From assembly GCA_042408925.1 (NCBI GenBank), contig JBHOQO010000139.1, positions 3,655-67,654 of the forward strand: a DNA stretch of 64,000 nt. The letters run 5' to 3'. The DNA is from Chloroflexota bacterium. GTDB lineage: Bacteria > Chloroflexota > Limnocylindria > Limnocylindrales > CSP1-4. Shown here piece after piece: positions 7,853 to 17,368 of this stretch; within the stretch, counting starts at the first letter, position 1; each line of letters starts with the position of its first letter. Both the position numbers and the translations under genes were made by a program. The notes below the pieces were generated by a model. The model did no database searches, was not told the DNA's origin, and saw nothing but the letters and a program-made list of their open reading frames with translations.

Positions 7853-8740
7853 CTACGGCGCTCGCGGGTCGACGAAGCGGCAGCGCGGCGCGACCGGGCA
7901 GGCCCTGCAGTTCGGCCGCCGCGCCTCGCAGATCCGCCGGCCGTGCGTGATCAGGTTGACGTGCGCCTCGTACACCTGGTCGGGCCGCAGCAGTTCCAGG
8001 TAGATGTCGTGGCACTCGTCGGCCGTCGCCGTCGCCGGCACGAGCCCGATCCGCTTCGAGACCCGCTCCACGTGCCGGTCGACCGGCATGAGCGGCATCC
8101 CGAAGCAGAACATGAGGATGACCGAAGCCGTCTTCTTGCCGATCCCGTCGATCGACGTCAGCCAGTCGCGGGCTGCGAGCGGCTCCATCGCCCCGAGAAA
8201 CTCGAGCGAGAAGTCGCCCCGCTCGTCCCGGATCCGGCGCAGCGCGGCGACCAATCGCGGCGCCTTCTGCCGGGCGAGCCCCCCGGGCCGGATCGCCTCC
8301 TCGACCTCCTCGATCGGCGCCTCGGCGATCGCCGCCCAGTCCGGCGCCGGCGCCAGCTCGATCCCGAGCCCGCCCCAGCCGTCGGGCGGCGTCCCGTTCG
8401 CCCGCCGGTCGCCGACGACCGGCCCCGAGCCAGGGAAGCGGGCCCGGAGCGACTCGAAGGCCTGCTCGGCGTTCGTGTCGGCGCTGTTCTGGGCGAGGAT
8501 CGTGAGGACGAGCTCGGACGTCGGATCGAGCCGACGGCGCCAGGTCGGTCGCCCGTAGAGCGTGGCGAGCGCGTCGAGGACGAACGCGACGAGACCGGGC
8601 CGGGTTCGTGCGAGGCGCCGAGCCCAGGTTCGGGCCGGGTTCGCGGGCCGGCGTCGGCGGGTCGGCCGCCGGACCGCACGGGCGGACCGTCTCGGTCGCT
8701 TCGAGCCCTCCGGCGGCGCCGTCTCGACCTCCTCGCTCAC
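7853..8740 (-). CDS. nth: Endonuclease III (HhH-GPD base-excision glycosylase with 4Fe-4S cluster), with a basic N-terminal tail
   Basis: HhH-GPD core: LVLTILAQNSADTNAEQAF...DGIGKKTASVILMFCFGMP. Cluster ligands C-x6-C-x2-C-x5-C: CEARRPNCRACPVAPRC. The proposed GTG start at 8738-8740 overlaps the upstream gene's TGA (GTGA); the rest of the 525-aa track ORF is low-complexity. Confidence 0.7.
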   Translation of the reverse strand: MSEEVETAPPEGSKRPRRSARAVRRPTRRRRPANPARTWARRLARTRPGLVAFVLDALATLYGRPTWRRRLDPTSELVLTILAQNSADTNAEQAFESLRARFPGSGPVVGDRRANGTPPDGWGGLGIELAPAPDWAAIAEAPIEEVEEAIRPGGLARQKAPRLVAALRRIRDERGDFSLEFLGAMEPLAARDWLTSIDGIGKKTASVILMFCFGMPLMPVDRHVERVSKRIGLVPATATADECHDIYLELLRPDQVYEAHVNLITHGRRICEARRPNCRACPVAPRCRFVDPRAP

Positions 8741-9981
8741 GCCCCCGAGTGTAGGGCGACCGAAGCCCCGAGGGAGACGCCGAGGGAGACGAGCCGGGCG
8801 ATCCGTTCGCCGCAGCGCTCGAGCGGCGCCGTCCCCGCCGCCATCGCCTCTGCCACCGAGATCGGCGCCTCGACGACCGGAACGACAACGACCCCGAACT
8901 CGCCGAGATCCCGGATCCCCTCCTCCGTCACCCCGCCCCCGACGGCGACGACGGCCCGCCCGGCCGCCCGAGCCCGTCGGGCGACCCCCATCGCCGTCTT
9001 GCCGAAGGCCGTCTGGGCGTCGATCCGGCCCTCGCCGGTGAGGACGAGGTCGGCCGCCTCGAGCTTCGACTCGAACCCCGTTTCGGCCATGACGAGCTCG
9101 ACGCCGGGCTCGAACCGGAGACTCCCGAAGCGCCCGGCGAGGCAGAGGAGGGCGAAGCCGACCCCGCCGGCCGCCCCCGCCCCCGGCGTCGTCCGTTCCC
9201 GACGGCCGGTCGCCGCCTCGAGCCGATCCGCCCAGCGCGCGAGCATCGCGTCGAGGACCGCGACGTCGCCCGGGGCCGCGCCCTTCTGCGGCCCGTACGT
9301 GGCGGCCGCGCCCGTCGGGCCGAGGAGCGGGTTGCCGACGTCGCAGGCGACCGAGAGCTCCACCTCGGCGAGCCGGGGATCGAGATCCGACAGGTCGACG
9401 GTCTCGAGGGCCTCGACGACCGCCGGCCAACCGCCCCCGCCCGGCAGCCCGTCAGCGGCGAGGAGGTCGCCCGATCGGCCCCGCAGCCGCGCCCCGAGGG
9501 CGACGAGGAGCCCGGCCCCGCCGTCGGTCGTCGCGCTCCCGCCGATCCCGAGGGTGATCCGCCGCGCCCCGCCGTCGAGGGCGGCCCGGAGGAGCTCGCC
9601 CGTCCCCCCCGTCGAGACCCGGAACGGATCGCGCTCGGAGGGCGCGAGCCGCGAGAGGCCCGAGGCCTCGGCGAGCTCGACGACCGCTCCCCGTGCCGCC
9701 CCCGCCGCTGCCTCGAGCCAGCGGGCCTCCACCTCCCGGCCGAGGGGGTCGCGGACCCGTGCCGCCCGCCACGCCCAGCCGCCGGCCGCCTCGATGGCGA
9801 CGAGCGTCCCTTCGCCCCCGTCGGCGAGCGGAGCGAGGAGGACCCGATCCCCCGGCCGGGCCCGCCCCCAGCCGGTCGCCAGGGCCCGAGCGACCTCGAC
9901 GGAGGTGAGCGACCCCTTGAACGAATCCGGCGCGACAAGGACGACGAGGCGAGGCTCGTGTCGAGCGGCCGAGCCCGCCAC
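8737..9981 (-). CDS. glxK: Glycerate kinase (GlxK/GarK family)
   Basis: Strong family motifs: VLVAPDSFKGSL, PLADGGEGT, TLGIGGSATTDGGAGLL, VACDVGNPLLGPTGAAATYGPQKGA, GAGAAGGVGFALL and LVLTGEGRIDAQTAFGK. The GTG start is at about 9979-9981. Confidence 0.8.
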   Translation of the reverse strand: MAGSAARHEPRLVVLVAPDSFKGSLTSVEVARALATGWGRARPGDRVLLAPLADGGEGTLVAIEAAGGWAWRAARVRDPLGREVEARWLEAAAGAARGAVVELAEASGLSRLAPSERDPFRVSTGGTGELLRAALDGGARRITLGIGGSATTDGGAGLLVALGARLRGRSGDLLAADGLPGGGGWPAVVEALETVDLSDLDPRLAEVELSVACDVGNPLLGPTGAAATYGPQKGAAPGDVAVLDAMLARWADRLEAATGRRERTTPGAGAAGGVGFALLCLAGRFGSLRFEPGVELVMAETGFESKLEAADLVLTGEGRIDAQTAFGKTAMGVARRARAAGRAVVAVGGGVTEEGIRDLGEFGVVVVPVVEAPISVAEAMAAGTAPLERCGERIARLVSLGVSLGASVALHSGA

Positions 9982-9986
9982 CGCCC

Positions 9987-12007
<2,021 letters not shown>

Positions 12008-12011
<4 letters not shown>

Positions 12012-13435
12012 GCGGGCCGACCCTCCGCCACGGGCGCTGCCACCGTCCCCTGCTCGGCCGGCCCGCGCTCGGCCGTCCAGCGCTCGACGAGGTACGGCTT
12101 GAGGAGCTCGAACTGGCGAGCCAGCCGCTCGACCCGCTCCTCGGCCTGTTCGGACGTGGCGGTCCGGTTCTCGACGACGAAGCCGCCGGCCCGGCCGAAG
12201 TAGATCGGGACGAGGGCGGCGACGAGCTCGGCCCGGGGGCGGTCGCGGTGCCCGGCGGCGACGATGAGGTCGTAGACGACCCGGGTCCAGATGTCGTCCG
12301 GGAAGCCGAAGGCGGCGGCCGCCTCGGCCATCTCGAGGGTCGACGGCCCGCCCGACCCGGCGGTCACGCTCGAGAGCCCGAGCCGGGTCCGGGCCTGGTC
12401 GGCGATCGTGCTCGCCTCGGCGGCGAGCTCGAGGACCGCCTCCGCCGTCGCCGGGGCGAGGATCTCCCGCCAGGTCGGGGCGAGGGTCAGGGCACCGGCC
12501 CCGAACTCGGCGAGGAGTCGGAGGGCGTTCACCTCGAGGGGCGGCGGCTCGAGGATCCGCTCGAAGCCGTAGACCGGGACCGGGTGGCTGCCCCGGATCG
12601 GGAGCCAGCGGTCGGCGTGCTCGATGGCGAGCCGGAGCGTCGTCCCGAGGACCTGCCGAAACATCGGCCCGAGGTCGGCCCCGGGGTCCTTCGGGTCGTG
12701 GACCTTCGCCCCGAGCCGGGTCTGGCAGACGGCGAAGCCGCCGATGAGGGCGTGGGTCGTCATCCAGATGTCGATCCCGAAGCGGCTGACGTCCTCGTCC
12801 CAGTCGTCGAGGCTCAGGTAGTGGCGGACGAGGTCGCCGGAAACGCCGAAGTCGCCGCCGATGGGCTGGCGGATCCGGCGCCCGTAGAGGGCCCGGGTCA
12901 GCGGGTAGGTGACGCTGTTCGTGATCGTGCCGTCGAACTTGTAGCGGGCGTAGAGGGGGGCGACGAAGTCGTAGCCGCCTTTGAGGATCGGGCCGGCGAG
13001 GAGCTCGATCCACTCGGGGAGGATCGAGCGGAGGTCGGAGTCGACGACGATGAGGGCCTCGACTTCGAGGGCGGCCGCGATTTCGAAGATCGTTCGGAGG
13101 GCGGCCCCCTTGCCGCCGACGCCGTCGATCTCCGGGTAGGTAAGGCTGAGGCGGGCGAGGCGGTTCGTCGGCCGGACGAGGAGGATCTGCTCGATGTAGT
13201 CGGGCGGCTCGGTCTCGACGACGACCCGCTGGGTCGCATCCGGGGAGCCGGCGTCGGCGTTGACGAGGACGGGCCGGAGGTCGGGGAAGTACTGGACGAG
13301 GCCGGCCTGGGCGGCGCGAACGACGTAGCCGATGGTCGCCGCGTTCTTGTAGCTCGGGATGCCGACCATGATGTCGGCTCGGCCAAGGCGCTCGACCTCG
13401 TCTCGGATCGCCGGGGTGAGGGTCGTCGCGGGCAC
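12008..13435 (-). CDS. GT81-like (GpgS/MpgS-family, GT-A fold) glycosyltransferase paralog with a roughly 170-aa C-terminal extension
   Basis: Collinear with the GpgS fold: IMVGIPSYKNAATIG (where GpgS has SLVLPTLNEEETIG), GKGAALRTIF (GKGEALWKSL), LIVVDSDLRSILPEW (DxD), APLYARYKFDGTITNSVTYPLTRALYG and QPIGGDFGVSGDLV (QPLSGEYA). The N-terminal Ser/Arg-rich part of the 619-aa track ORF overlaps the upstream gene and is treated as an artifact. The start is uncertain. Confidence 0.5.
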
Positions 13436-13517
13436 GGCTCCACCGTAGCACCCCGAGCGCGCGGCGTCCACGTGACCGACCGGATCGGCTGAGGTGCCGT
13501 GGGTCTGGCCGCGGCCG

Positions 13518-14276
13518 TCAGCGGCGAGGGATCGGGGCGAGGGTCCAGCCGCCGTTCGGGCGGCCCGGTTCGTAGCGGCTGTTCGCCGCCTTGTAGACGA
13601 CGGAGCGGAAGCCGAGCGCCCGCCAGGCGCCGAGCCAGGGCTCGATCGGGAGCCGGACGAACGCCGTCCGGCGGACGAGGGGCCCCTCGGCGAGGACGCT
13701 TTCGAGGAGCCGCTTTCGCTCGAGGAGCGGGACGTCGAGGAGCGGCTCGCCGTCGAGGGCGAGGAGGTCGATGGCGACGAAGGCGAGCCGGTCGCCCGGC
13801 CGGCGTTCGAGGGGCGGGCCGGCATCCTCGCGGCCGCGGCGTCGGCCGAAGACGAGCTGGGCGGCAAGCTCGCCGGCCGTCGGGACCTCGACCTCGCCCG
13901 GCAGGATCCCCTCGCCGCTCCGACTCGCCTGGAGCGTCAAGAACCCGTCGAGGACGGCGTCGGCGGCGCGGATCGCGGCGCGGAGGGCCTCGACGAGGGC
14001 CTCCAGCTCCGCACGGCCCGCCGCCGAGCTCGGATCGGGGTGGGCATCGGGACCGGTCAGGGCCGTTCCCTCGGCGTCGATGATCCGGAGGCCCGCCGCC
14101 TCGAGGTGGACGAGGACCCGTCGGCCCTCCCAGAGCGGCTCGACGATCGGGTCGACGATGTCGCGCGGACGCCGGTCGCCGAAGGCGGCCGGTCGCCAGG
14201 CGGCGCGGTCGGCGAGGGCGGTACGAGGCGCAAGATCCGGGTGGCCCACACTTGGATCGTACTCCCGGCGGGCCAC
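13518..14276 (-). CDS. ATP-dependent DNA ligase-like nucleotidyltransferase-domain protein with degenerate catalytic motif I (KxDG becomes LWEG); probable pseudo-enzyme
   Basis: Ligase motifs are recognisable: EPLWEGRRVLVHLEAAGLRIIDAEG (motif I position), AVLDGFL (III), LAFVAIDLLALDGEPLLDVPLLERKRLL (IIIa), RSVVYK (IV) and NSRYEPGRPNGGW (V). There is no OB domain. The start is uncertain. Confidence 0.45.
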   Translation of the reverse strand: MARREYDPSVGHPDLAPRTALADRAAWRPAAFGDRRPRDIVDPIVEPLWEGRRVLVHLEAAGLRIIDAEGTALTGPDAHPDPSSAAGRAELEALVEALRAAIRAADAVLDGFLTLQASRSGEGILPGEVEVPTAGELAAQLVFGRRRGREDAGPPLERRPGDRLAFVAIDLLALDGEPLLDVPLLERKRLLESVLAEGPLVRRTAFVRLPIEPWLGAWRALGFRSVVYKAANSRYEPGRPNGGWTLAPIPRR

Positions 14277-14295
14277 CGGGCGTGATGAGGGGGCC

Positions 14296-15294
14296 CTACG
14301 GTCCCTCGTACCCCGTCGGATGGTCGAGGAGCCAGGCCCAGGCCGAGCCAATCATCGCCTCGAGGGAGCTCCGGGCAGGGCGCCAGCCGAGGACCTCGGC
14401 CGCGCGCCGGTTCGAGGCGACGAGGATCGGCGGATCGCCGGGGCGGCGCGGGCCGACCCGCTGCGGGATCGGGCGGCCGACGACGGCCTCGGCGGCGGCG
14501 AGGACCTCGCGGACGCTGTAGCCGCGCTCGGTCCCGAGGTTGCAGACGAGGGGCGCCGCGGTCCGCGGGTCGTCGGGCGCGGTCGCCTCGAGGGCGGCCA
14601 GGTGGGCCTCGGCGAGATCGGCGACGTGGATGTAGTCGCGGATGCACGTCCCGTCCGGGGTCGGGTAGTCGTCGCCGTAGACGACGACCTCGGGGGCTCG
14701 TCCCTGGGCGGCGGCGAGGACGTTCGGGATGAGGTGGGTCTCGGGGACGTGCCATTCGCCGACCCGGTCGGTCGCCCCGGCGACGTTGAAGTACCGGAGG
14801 CTGACGCTCCGGAGGCCGTAGGCGTGGCCGTACCAGGAGAGGGCGGCTTCGAGGGTCCGCTTCGTCTCGCCGTACGGGTTGATCGGGCGGAGGGGAGCGT
14901 CCTCGGTGATCGGGACCGCGTCGGGGATCCCGTAGACCGCGGCCGTCGAACTGAGGACGAAGCGCCCGACGCCGGCCCGCCGACAGGCCTCGAGGAGGGC
15001 GATCCCGCCGGCGACGTTGTCGCGATAGTAGCGGGCCGGATCGGCGATCGATTCCCCGACGAGGGAGCGGGCGGCGCAATGGAGGACGGCCTCGATCCCC
15101 TCCTCGCCAAGGAGGTCGCCGACGGCCGCTTCGTCGGCGTACGTCCCGACGACGAGGCGGGCGGCCTCGGGGACCGCGAGCGCGTGGCCCGTCGTGAGGT
15201 CGTCGAGGACGACGACGGTGTGGCCCACCTCGACGAGGCGTTCGACGCTCGCGGCACCGACGTAGCCGGCGCCGCCGGTCACCAGGATGCGCAT
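14296..15294 (-). CDS. galE: UDP-glucose 4-epimerase
   Basis: MRILVTGGAGYVG Rossmann motif, the YxxxK active site in NPYGETKRTLE, and full-length similarity to the GalE pattern (332 aa). Confidence 0.85.
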   Translation of the reverse strand: MRILVTGGAGYVGAASVERLVEVGHTVVVLDDLTTGHALAVPEAARLVVGTYADEAAVGDLLGEEGIEAVLHCAARSLVGESIADPARYYRDNVAGGIALLEACRRAGVGRFVLSSTAAVYGIPDAVPITEDAPLRPINPYGETKRTLEAALSWYGHAYGLRSVSLRYFNVAGATDRVGEWHVPETHLIPNVLAAAQGRAPEVVVYGDDYPTPDGTCIRDYIHVADLAEAHLAALEATAPDDPRTAAPLVCNLGTERGYSVREVLAAAEAVVGRPIPQRVGPRRPGDPPILVASNRRAAEVLGWRPARSSLEAMIGSAWAWLLDHPTGYEGP

Positions 15295-15383: not shown

Positions 15384-15839
15384 TCAGGGCCGGCGGAGGA
15401 GCCGGCCCAGCCAGCCGCGCCGTCGTCGCGCGGGGGCATCGGCGTCGCGCGGCGCGGGCGGCCGGGCGTCCGGGTGCGCTTCGGGTGCCGCCCGGGTCGC
15501 GGGTGCCACACCGGTCTCGGGTGCCGCCCCGGTCTCGGGTGCCGCCCCGGTCTCGGGTGCCGCCCCGGTTGCCGCCGCCCGGGTCGCTCGAACCTCCTCG
15601 AGGCGGGCGACGAGCCGCTGCGCCGCGACGTTCTCGGGATCGGCCGCCAGGGCCTGCCGTGCCAGCTCGAGCGCTCCCGCTTCGTCACCGCGCTCGAGGG
15701 CGACCCGAGCGAGCCCGACGATGGCGATGGCGTTCCCGGGGTCGGCGGCGAGGACCTGCCGGTACGTCTGCTCGGCCCGATCGAGGAGCCCGGCGACGAG
15801 GGCCCGCTCGGCGTCGAGGAGGAGCTCGATGGTCGTCAC
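15384..15839 (-). CDS. TPR-repeat protein with a C-terminal AAPETG tandem repeat
   Basis: TPR-like helices: YRQVLAADPGNAIAIVGLARVALERGDEAGALELARQALAADPEN. The C-terminal AAPETG x3 is encoded by an 18-bp tandem repeat at about 15485-15560. Confidence 0.45.
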   Translation of the reverse strand: MTTIELLLDAERALVAGLLDRAEQTYRQVLAADPGNAIAIVGLARVALERGDEAGALELARQALAADPENVAAQRLVARLEEVRATRAAATGAAPETGAAPETGAAPETGVAPATRAAPEAHPDARPPAPRDADAPARRRRGWLGRLLRRP

Positions 15840-15845
15840 GATCCG

Positions 15846-17250
15846 CTACGCCTCGTCGGCGGCCAGGGACCGGGCGAGGAGGAGGAGGGTCGGTCGCTCG
15901 TTCAGCGACGGGTCGGCGACGACCCGCTCGAGGAGGGCGTCGAGGATTCGACCGAGGCGCGGCCCCGGCTCCACACCGAGCTCGGCGATGAGGTCGTCGC
16001 CGTCGACGGCGAGGTCGCGTCGGTCGAGGACGACCGGGCCGGCGAGGATCGCCGCGACGCGCGCCTCGAGCTCGGCCACGCCGGTCGCTTCGGGCGGCAG
16101 GCCGCTCCCGACGTTGTCGGCCCGTCGCAAGGCGAAGAGCTCGTCGAGGGCGTCGGGGCCGATCCGGGCGATGAAGCGTCGGACGGCGGCGTCGCTCCAG
16201 CTCCCCTCGTAGGAGAACATGTGGTGACGGACGAGGTGGGCGACCCGCTCGATCGTCTCGCGGGGCAGCCGGAGGCGCCGGAGGATCACCTCGCTCAGCT
16301 CCGCCCCCCGGAGCTCGTGGCCCGGGAAGTGCCCCTCGGCGGCCGTTCCGGGCTTGCCGACGTCGTGGAGGAGGGCAGCGAGCCGGACGATCGGCCGCTC
16401 GGCCGGTGCGGCATCGACGGTCCGGAGCGTGTGGGCCCAGAGGTCGTCGCCGGGAACCTTGGCCTGGGGGACCCCGCGCTGGGCGGCGAGCTCGGGGAGG
16501 AGGCGTTCGAGAAGGCCGGTCGCCTCGAGGAGCCCGAGGCCGATGGACGGCCGGCGGGCGGCGAGGAGCTTCGTCAGCTCGGCCGCGATCCGTTCGCCCG
16601 AAAGGTGGCGGACGAGGTCGGCCCGCTCCCGGATCGCCGCGAGCGTGGCCGGCTCGATCTCGAACTCGAGGACGGCGGCGAGGCGGATCGCCCGGACCAT
16701 CCGGAGGGCGTCCTCCCCGAAGCGGTCGAACGGGTTGCCGACGGCCCGGATCCGGCGGGCGGCGAGGTCGGCGAGGCCGCCGTGGGGGTCGACCAGGCGG
16801 ATCTCGGCGGGCGTGCCGTCGGGGCTCGGCTCGGCGCCCCAGGCGAGGGCGTTGATCGTGAAGTCGCGGCGGGCGAGGTCGTCCTCGATCCGCTCGCCAA
16901 ACTCGACCCGGTGGGGGCGGCGGAAGTCGGCGTACTCGTGCTCGGAGCGGAAGGTCGTGATCTCGTGGACGCCGTCCCGGCGGCGGACGCCGACGGTCCC
17001 GAACTGGTTCTCGTACGACGCGTCGGGGAAGACCGCCAGGACCTCCTCGGGGCGGGCGGCGGTGGCGAGGTCCCAGTCGGCGGCCGGGCGGTCGAGGAGG
17101 ACGTCGCGGAGCGAGCCGCCGACGAGGTAGGCGGCGTGGCCGGCGGCCCAGAGCCGGCGGAGGAGGTCGAGGACGGGTTCGGGGACGGCGGCGGCGATCT
17201 TCGCCCGGGCGGCCTCGGGATCGAGCGGCTCGGCGGGCGTGTTCGGCTCG
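15846..17250 (-). CDS. cca: CCA-adding enzyme / poly(A) polymerase-family tRNA nucleotidyltransferase with a C-terminal HD domain
   Basis: Pol-beta nucleotidyltransferase head GGSLRDVLLDRPAADWDLAT; RDFTINALAW; HD region HLVRHHMF...LRRADNVGSG. The start is approximate; the upstream part of the track ORF runs through a 17-bp tandem repeat and the HNH gene in another frame. Confidence 0.65.
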
Positions 17251-17254
17251 GTCG

Positions 17255-17345
17255 GCCTTCGTCCTGTGGTGGGCCCTCGCCCCGCGGTCGACCCTCGCCC
17301 CGCGGTCGACCCTCGCCGCGCGGTCGACCCTCGCCGCGCGGTCGA
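17255..17345. repeat. 17-bp tandem repeat (CGCGGTCGACCCTCGCC) x4
   Basis: Read directly: 'ccgcggtcgaccctcgccccgcggtcgaccctcgccgcgcggtcgaccctcgccgcgcggtcgac'. Confidence 0.8.
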
Positions 17346-17368
17346 CTCGTCCCGTCCCCGACCGGCGC

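Follow-up and report, generated by a model that had tools for sequence, protein, structure and literature searches.

A predicted glucosylglycerate synthase translationally coupled to a Usp-GpgS fusion in a Chloroflexota genome fragment

What does a second glycosyltransferase gene contribute when it lies directly upstream of a gene that encodes glucosyl-3-phosphoglycerate synthase (GpgS)? The question is raised by a 64,000-nucleotide stretch of DNA from a Chloroflexota bacterium (GenBank assembly GCA_042408925.1, contig JBHOQO010000139.1, positions 3,655 to 67,654), hereafter the window, in which an open reading frame (ORF) for 475 amino acids on the minus strand (12008..13435) runs into gpgS. 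An earlier note on this DNA had placed a GT81-like enzyme here and offered several readings of it: a paralog of GpgS or of mannosyl-3-phosphoglycerate synthase (MpgS), the second step of a two-step glycoside pathway, or an enzyme with donor and acceptor specificities distinct from those of its neighbor. We consider it probable that the gene, referred to below as ggs, encodes a metal-dependent, retaining GT-A enzyme of the Ggs family (EC 2.4.1.268), which would join glucose from a nucleoside diphosphate sugar (NDP-glucose) to D-glycerate and yield 2-O-alpha-D-glucosyl-D-glycerate, the compatible and stress-protective solute glucosylglycerate; such catalysis is predicted to depend on Mg2+. Homology to Ggs, fold, residue conservation, and gene context are direct observations, from which we infer the substrates, the product, and the physiological role. 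In an uncultured Chloroflexota lineage of soil and freshwater, a gene annotated as "hypothetical" or "GT family 2" thus gains a specific assignment, and current understanding is not overturned by these results.

Homology to Ggs and the reading frame

The assignment is carried by a full-length match to the Ggs of Persephonella marina EX-H1 (our P0442; ACO03168.1 / WP_012675407.1 / UniRef100_C0QRQ1), a protein named "glucosylglycerate synthase Ggs" at NCBI that we recovered by searching with an Aquificales family protein. The alignment of the two spans 452 columns at 37% identity (E 1e-108), from residue 3 to 453 of 475 in the window protein and from 11 to 416 of 417 in P. marina Ggs, and the segments RYKFDGTITN, RQPIGGDFG, and FGIDIWMTT are identical in both. 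Used as a query against the window, P. marina Ggs matches the ggs ORF only (309.6 bits). We take ACO03168.1 to be the enzyme characterized by Fernandes et al. 2007, which reportedly converts ADP-glucose and D-glycerate to glucosylglycerate in one step; the same study reportedly found its gene clustered with gpgS and gpgP in an operon-like manner. Condensation of ADP-glucose with D-glycerate by GgS is also described in a later source (PMC3736172).

Full-length membership in a family whose P. marina representative acts in a single step on unphosphorylated D-glycerate speaks against the second-step role that the earlier note had suggested. An enzyme that extends glucosylglycerate or glucosyl-3-phosphoglycerate, for example to di-glucosylglycerate or mannosylglucosylglycerate, would fit the tight coupling to gpgS and the recurrence of GT4 genes near family members elsewhere, and such glycosides occur in Petrotoga and Rhodopirellula (PMC3736172). 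We nevertheless judge it distinctly unlikely, given that the glycerate-carboxylate-binding residues beneath the donor are conserved as in GpgS and in mannosylglycerate synthase (MGS), that MggA is described as a retaining-family GT4 enzyme and not as a GT-A enzyme (PMC3736172), that the characterized homolog uses free glycerate, and that the conserved partner gene encodes a glycerate kinase and is not disaccharide-related.

The Ggs family to which we assign the window protein is large. A word-index search with the target returned 7,905 homologs, including one 100% identical NCBI protein and many 76–80% identical proteins from metagenome-assembled genomes (MAGs) of Chloroflexota / Candidatus Limnocylindrales, several of which carry the JGI name "glucosylglycerate synthase". 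An exhaustive search of 50%-identity representatives, most of them ~410–430 amino acids long, yielded 2,397 clusters when the limit was set at E<=1e-3 and 603 when it was E<=1e-30, spread over many bacterial and archaeal phyla. A neighbor-joining tree, which is crude, lacks bootstrap values, and bears only on family cohesion and on distance from GpgS and MGS, recovered a cohesive Ggs family (pairwise identities >=33%) with the Limnocylindria clade as one branch within it; GpgS and MGS (22–27% identity over ~135–177 alignable positions) are set off from the family by a long branch. Look-ups of family clusters returned no characterized member among those clusters; to our knowledge, P. marina Ggs is the sole characterized member and no Ggs structure has been solved. 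The most AT-rich representative (P0219) has a context resembling that of the candidate phyla radiation (Mur ligase, FemAB, PolA), without glucosylglycerate genes.

The limits of ggs agree with those given in the earlier note, from a GTG at 13435 to a TGA at 12010–12008, in a window of ~73% G+C. A relative (locus L001) keeps both the GTG and, directly 5' of it, GGTGG(A/G)G, and an upstream stop there blocks a longer N-terminus; alignments with distant homologs already begin at target residues 1–6. An alternative start farther upstream, at 13471, was rejected, as it found no support in L001. The ggs stop overlaps the GTG start of the downstream gene (12011–12009) as GTGA (12008..12011, minus strand), an overlap that had been reported before and that direct reading of the sequence bears out. 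The same four nucleotides are shared at loci L001, L002, L125, and L126, and ggs is translationally coupled to its neighbor. A scan for sigma-70 promoters gave no match, and the single terminator-like site lies at chance level.

Fold, domains, and active site

An AlphaFold2 model built on a 60-sequence alignment (mean predicted local distance difference test score, pLDDT, 86.4; predicted template modeling score, pTM, 0.87) shows a GT-A domain as far as residue 290 or so and a second domain, all-helical, at about residues 304–457, with residues 464–475 unreliable. Together with the matches to the GT-A domains of GpgS and MGS, its secondary structure delimits a catalytic domain at about residues 18–290 (12566..13384, minus strand), followed by a family-wide, MGS-like helical domain at about residues 300–457 (12065..12538, minus strand). 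In a Foldseek comparison with the Protein Data Bank (PDB), the best match was MGS of Rhodothermus marinus (GT78; 2y4j/2bo4), at E 3e-13 over 450–466 columns with 15–16% identity and template modeling scores of 0.70–0.73 normalized by MGS. Mycobacterial GpgS followed (~E 2e-9, ~285 columns, 24–27% identity), and then MpgS of R. xylanophilus. A family profile searched against PDB sequences gave E 4.9e-7 for MGS and E 1.3e-6 for GpgS. Judged by these profile scores, GT78 and GT81 lie at about the same distance from the Ggs family. The modeled architecture of the family is that of MGS, which has the same two-domain fold and also acts in a single step on unphosphorylated D-glycerate.

The C-terminal extension of about 170 residues that the earlier note had singled out is real relative to GpgS, helical, and confidently predicted. 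It is no peculiarity of this protein: members at 36–49% identity can be aligned to the target all the way from residues 1–6 to 453, so the extension is a conserved domain of the family, part of a two-domain plan that the target shares, and conservation in our alignment A1 runs through W383, P410, and Y412 to about residue 453. The clade-specific parts are limited to a disordered tail of ~20 residues and an insertion of ~36 residues (about residues 343–380; 12296..12409, minus strand), which A1 shows in Limnocylindria-type sequences only and which appears as a 30-residue gap, the sole large one, in the alignment with P. marina Ggs.

The collinearity with GpgS that had been noted is genuine but weak. 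Residues 18–268 match positions 29–266 of 307 in the NCBIfam GpgS profile NF010496 at 49.6 bits (E 2.8e-13), far below the cutoff of 262 that the neighboring gpgS passes with 371.5, and the match to Mycobacterium tuberculosis GpgS (4y6n) has an E of 2.2e-6. Three GpgS signatures are also replaced or missing: the target has PIGGD in place of PLSGE with its serine, KVHDPKD in place of RxHRNR/Q, and a β6–α6 loop, between the conserved arginine and threonine of the acceptor site, that is of MGS length throughout the Ggs family and 9–13 residues longer in the two GpgS sequences that were aligned. In GpgS, this loop has been proposed to contact the remainder of 3-phosphoglycerate (PMC2581804). On these grounds, and with full-length membership in the Ggs family, the reading of the gene as a GpgS/MpgS paralog was rejected. 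A divergent enzyme of that kind, still using 3-phosphoglycerate, might be argued from the weak but significant GT81 similarity and from the DxD, lysine, histidine, and carboxylate-binding threonine held in common with GpgS; the low profile score, the absent loop and RxHRNR/Q motif, the MGS-type architecture and loop lengths, and the genuine GpgS encoded next door make it very unlikely.

The broader placement as a GT81-like GT-A enzyme stands, given the matches to GpgS and MGS and the AlphaFold2 model. Sequence similarity to the founding members of GT81 is present along with the GT-A fold, and the CAZy family of the target is probably that of GpgS, GT81. Pfam finds only a sub-threshold GT2 match in the target; the MGS_GT entry PF21969 (gathering threshold 27 bits) has no match in it at E<=0.1, and some other family members match that entry weakly, for instance the relative P0027 at 24.4 bits. 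The label of a Thermococcus protein listed as "GT81 Glucosylglycerate synthase" (PMC8790579) points the same way, and Thermococcus loci with a family member are present among the matches listed (L053, L065, L067, and L104).

The motifs named in the earlier note are all present (GKGAALRTIF at residues 108–117, VVDSDL at 130–135, and QPIGGDFG at 190–197), and they fall within an active site that can be laid out residue by residue. The DxD motif for metal and NDP binding, D132-S133-D134 (13034..13042; this and the following features are on the minus strand), aligns with D134-S-D136 of GpgS and D100-A-D102 of MGS. It is followed by the acceptor motif R164-Y-K-F-D-G-T-I-T172 with its short, MGS-length loop (12920..12946), by the donor-sugar loop Q190-P-I-G-G-D195 (12851..12868), aligned with QPLSGE of GpgS and QPLGGE of MGS, and by H246, the second metal ligand (12698..12700), aligned with H258 of GpgS and H217 of MGS. 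R164 corresponds to R131 of MGS, whose role in glycerate binding was reportedly addressed by Flint et al. 2005.

Residue equivalences were taken from HMMER and MAFFT alignments, and roles from the structural study of M. tuberculosis GpgS (PMC2581804). K109 corresponds to K114 of GpgS and K76 of MGS, D132 to D134 and D100, and D222 to E232 and D192; K114, D134, and E232 of GpgS belong to an ion-pair network that contacts O3, O4, and O6 of the sugar (PMC2581804). D134 corresponds to D136 of GpgS and D102 of MGS, and the positions of GpgS D136 and H258 are metal ligands (PMC2581804). The I171 main chain, together with T172, aligns with V186/T187 of GpgS and I138/T139 of MGS, which bind the glycerate carboxylate (PMC2581804). 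All of the family-invariant residues (K109, D132, D134, R164, T172, QPIGG(D/E), D222, K244, and H246) occur in the target, and each is kept in 91–99% of 504 full-length members, which are a non-independent sample (D132 in 481/504, D134 in 473/504, R164 in 499/504, T172 in 473/504, and H246 in 460/504). The target therefore looks catalytically competent, with what appears to be an MGS-like pocket for an unphosphorylated acceptor. Of the two differences in specificity that the earlier note had entertained, the one in acceptor is our best reading of the target.

About 15–20 of the 504 members, the window protein not among them, carry joint substitutions at several catalytic positions (K109R, D132S, D134T/N, H246Q), and these may constitute a subgroup that is divergent or inactive.

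The donor loop is where a different sugar has to be considered. Ser210 in the PLSGE of GpgS has been proposed to make the loop rigid and to exclude mannose, and the glycine of MGS allows mannose (PMC2581804); the Ggs family, P. marina Ggs included, has glycine at this position, as in MGS. An enzyme with GDP-mannose as donor, that is, the activity known from GT78 within a Ggs scaffold, would be consistent with this glycine, with a whole-protein fold closest to MGS, and with the weak PF21969 matches of some members. It is still unlikely, as P. marina Ggs, described as glucose-transferring, has an identical RQPIGGDFG, the coupled gene encodes a glucosyl-3-phosphoglycerate synthase and not an MpgS, and identity to MGS is low.

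By homology with the crystal structures of GpgS and MGS, a mechanism for the predicted glucosyl transfer can be proposed. D132-x-D134 and H246 would hold a divalent metal bridging the NDP diphosphate, K109, D132, and D222 would hold the sugar hydroxyls, and the QPIGGD loop would lie under the anomeric carbon. The I171 main chain, together with T172 and R164, would hold the glycerate carboxylate such that the 2-OH could attack from the leaving-group face, and the helical C-terminal domain would pack on the GT-A domain as in MGS.

The earlier note had regarded a missing GT-A fold, or missing DxD-equivalent and acceptor-binding residues, as the mark of a pseudoenzyme. All of these were detected, and that reading was rejected because the catalytic residues are intact. 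A dead or regulatory partner of the downstream GpgS, for which one might cite the conserved four-nucleotide overlap and the clade-specific insertion, receives almost no credence from us, every catalytic residue being intact and conserved in the family.

Gene neighborhood in the window and across phyla

The downstream gene (9987..12011, minus strand), which had been called gpgS, encodes a bona fide GpgS by its NF010496 score, to which we add that the enzyme is fused to two N-terminal Usp domains: the 674-residue product has Usp at about residues 1–335 (Pfam, two stretches, E 6.4e-24) and GpgS at 338–651. Five nucleotides past the stop of usp-gpgS, a GTG at 9981 opens a gene for a glycerate kinase of the GlxK/GarK type (8737..9981, minus strand; Pfam Gly_kinase PF02595, E 2.9e-116). 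With the GTGA overlap on one side and this 5-nt gap on the other, ggs, usp-gpgS, and the kinase gene are packed tightly together. In all four Limnocylindria-type relatives named above (75–80% protein identity), ggs is likewise followed by Usp-Usp-gpgS, glycerate kinase, and HhH-GPD genes, and the fusion itself and the overlap are kept as well, although a GNAT gene or a toxin–antitoxin pair is inserted in some of them.

Such an operon would provide parallel routes to glucosylglycerate, from glycerate through Ggs and from 3-phosphoglycerate through GpgS; the glycerate kinase would connect the two acceptors, and a stress input through the Usp domains is plausible. This dual-route arrangement of Ggs, Usp-GpgS, and glycerate kinase predicts that glucosylglycerate is made under osmotic or nitrogen stress. 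Searches of the window by phmmer with the HAD-type GpgP and the MOFRL kinase of Persephonella gave no match, and Pfam on 20 other long ORFs, a subset of those in the window, returned housekeeping functions only, with no histidine-phosphatase candidate for GpgP.

For a view beyond the Limnocylindria, a degenerate two-motif DNA pattern was run over GTDB species genomes and returned at least 120 loci, every one with a family ORF; P. marina itself is not among these listed matches. The pattern demanded AGR arginine codons, so the sample is biased to genomes that use them; loci were taken as 8-kb blocks, and the counts, which refer throughout to the matches listed, are lower bounds. Within these limits, gpgS was found in the same block as the family member in at least 32 of 124 loci, always on the same strand and directly adjacent in at least 15, a MOFRL glycerate kinase in at least 18 of 124, and a GpgP-like HAD phosphatase in at least 17 of 124. 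Operon-like association with gpgS is shared by the target with other members of the family, seen as the four-nucleotide overlap here and in the relatives, in Persephonella, and in Aquificales MAGs; in two of the latter (L044/L012), ggs is followed by a GpgS of ~404 amino acids whose best NCBIfam match is NF040724, full length at 348–353 bits and below the cutoff of 700. Unsupervised clustering of neighbors with Pfam annotation, over 121 loci, ranked a protein of ~241 amino acids with a mechanosensitive-channel helix first (42 loci), followed by gpgS (29), HAD phosphatase (17), a GH13-family protein of ~1000 amino acids (12), GT4 (11), and GT5 glycogen synthase (8). Besides gpgS, the recurrent company of family genes includes phosphatases resembling GpgP, glycerate kinases of two unrelated kinds, and a mechanosensitive-channel-like gene. 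The two kinases, GlxK type (PF02595) in the window at 8737–9981 and DUF4147/MOFRL in Persephonella (L124, 6701–7999) and 17 other loci, look like a non-homologous replacement in the same gene cluster.

Several smaller observations from these loci are recorded here. The mechanosensitive-type neighbor (L106, 2982–3704, and 41 other loci) has MS_channel_1st_1, the conserved transmembrane helix of such channels, as its only Pfam match and is absent beside the ggs of the window. In L013 (3191–5425) and L050 (1957–4236), ggs adjoins a gene that by Pfam encodes an amino-acid permease of the APC family, with Usp domains at its C-terminus, and an ORF of similar size beside ggs in L056 (3860–6094) matched a Usp query. 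In WOR-3 (locus L008), the gene beside ggs encodes a GpgS of the type found in the window, whose GT2 domain starts ~34 residues into the ORF and leaves no room for Usp.

Assignment to glucosylglycerate synthesis must be weighed against several points. With identity at 37%, the donor or the acceptor might not be that of P. marina Ggs, and the MGS-like glycine in the donor loop, in place of the GpgS serine, would by sequence permit mannose. As far as we know, enzymology within the family is limited to that one enzyme, and our identification of its activity leans on the NCBI protein name. Among the ORFs of the window that were scanned, we saw neither a GpgP nor an obvious enzyme to supply D-glycerate, and the neighborhood census is biased by its AGR-codon pattern and bounded by its 8-kb blocks and by the matches listed. 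The arrangement of ggs beside gpgS is seen at the Persephonella locus and was reportedly described for P. marina in 2007. A more far-reaching view, which we regard as doubtful, is that the Limnocylindria-type Ggs, with its ~36-residue insertion and its obligatory GTGA coupling to the tandem-Usp fusion, is no mere duplicate of the Persephonella enzyme and either forms a stress-sensing two-enzyme module with Usp-GpgS or has shifted in specificity, for example toward a GDP-mannose donor or a glucosylglycerate acceptor. The MGS-like glycine of the donor loop would permit such a shift; if this view is true, the Ggs family would be a structural link that traces GT78 (MGS) and GT81 (GpgS) back to a single glycerate glycosyltransferase with two domains.

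Other features of the window are recorded as well. Directly upstream of ggs, an ORF of about 230–277 amino acids (13518–14351, minus strand) has a weak match to the adenylation domain of ATP-dependent DNA ligases (31 bits); it is too small for a complete ligase, holds the same position in L001 and L002, and has an unannotated counterpart of similar size in L125 and L126. Farther along are two arrays of 18-nt tandem repeats, each of about five copies with 88–91% matches: one at 15482–15569, where a small TPR protein (15384–15839, minus strand) has hexapeptide repeats in its tail, and one at 17249–17346, upstream of a PolyA_pol/CCA-adding enzyme domain in a long ORF.

Comparison with known systems

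The closest known system is that of P. marina. Its Ggs shares with the target the core motifs GKG, DSDL, RYKFDGTITN, RQPIGGDFG, FGIDIWMTT, and LGAKxH and the same two-domain length plan, and its gene likewise stands directly beside gpgS and close to a glycerate kinase gene, in the order HAD Hydrolase_3 phosphatase (GpgP-like), DUF4147/MOFRL glycerate kinase, ggs, gpgS. The target, however, is 58 amino acids longer, owing to the ~36-residue insertion in its helical domain and the ~20-residue low-confidence tail. Its partner is a GpgS of actinobacterial type with two Usp domains, whereas that of Persephonella is of the ~403-residue type with NF040724 as its best match (scored on the Aquificales GpgS of L044/L012, which the Persephonella GpgS matches at 759–774 bits). 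The glycerate kinase is of GlxK and not of MOFRL type, no gpgP is adjacent here, and the host is a high-GC, Limnocylindria-like member of the Chloroflexota, as opposed to a marine thermophile.

Among enzymes of known structure, MGS of R. marinus (GT78; 2BO4/2Y4J) differs from the target in sequence (15–16% identity, with no Pfam MGS_GT match in the target) and in its donor, GDP-mannose. MpgS of R. xylanophilus (GT81; 3F1Y/3KIA) differs in using a phosphorylated acceptor, in having no MGS-type C-terminal domain, and in matching the target more weakly than MGS or GpgS does. GpgS (GT81; Rv1208, 4Y6N/3E25, and M. hassiacum, 7P5L) resembles the target in its GT-A fold, at 24–27% identity, and the equivalents of its Lys114, His258, Thr187, and DxD motif are all present in the window protein.

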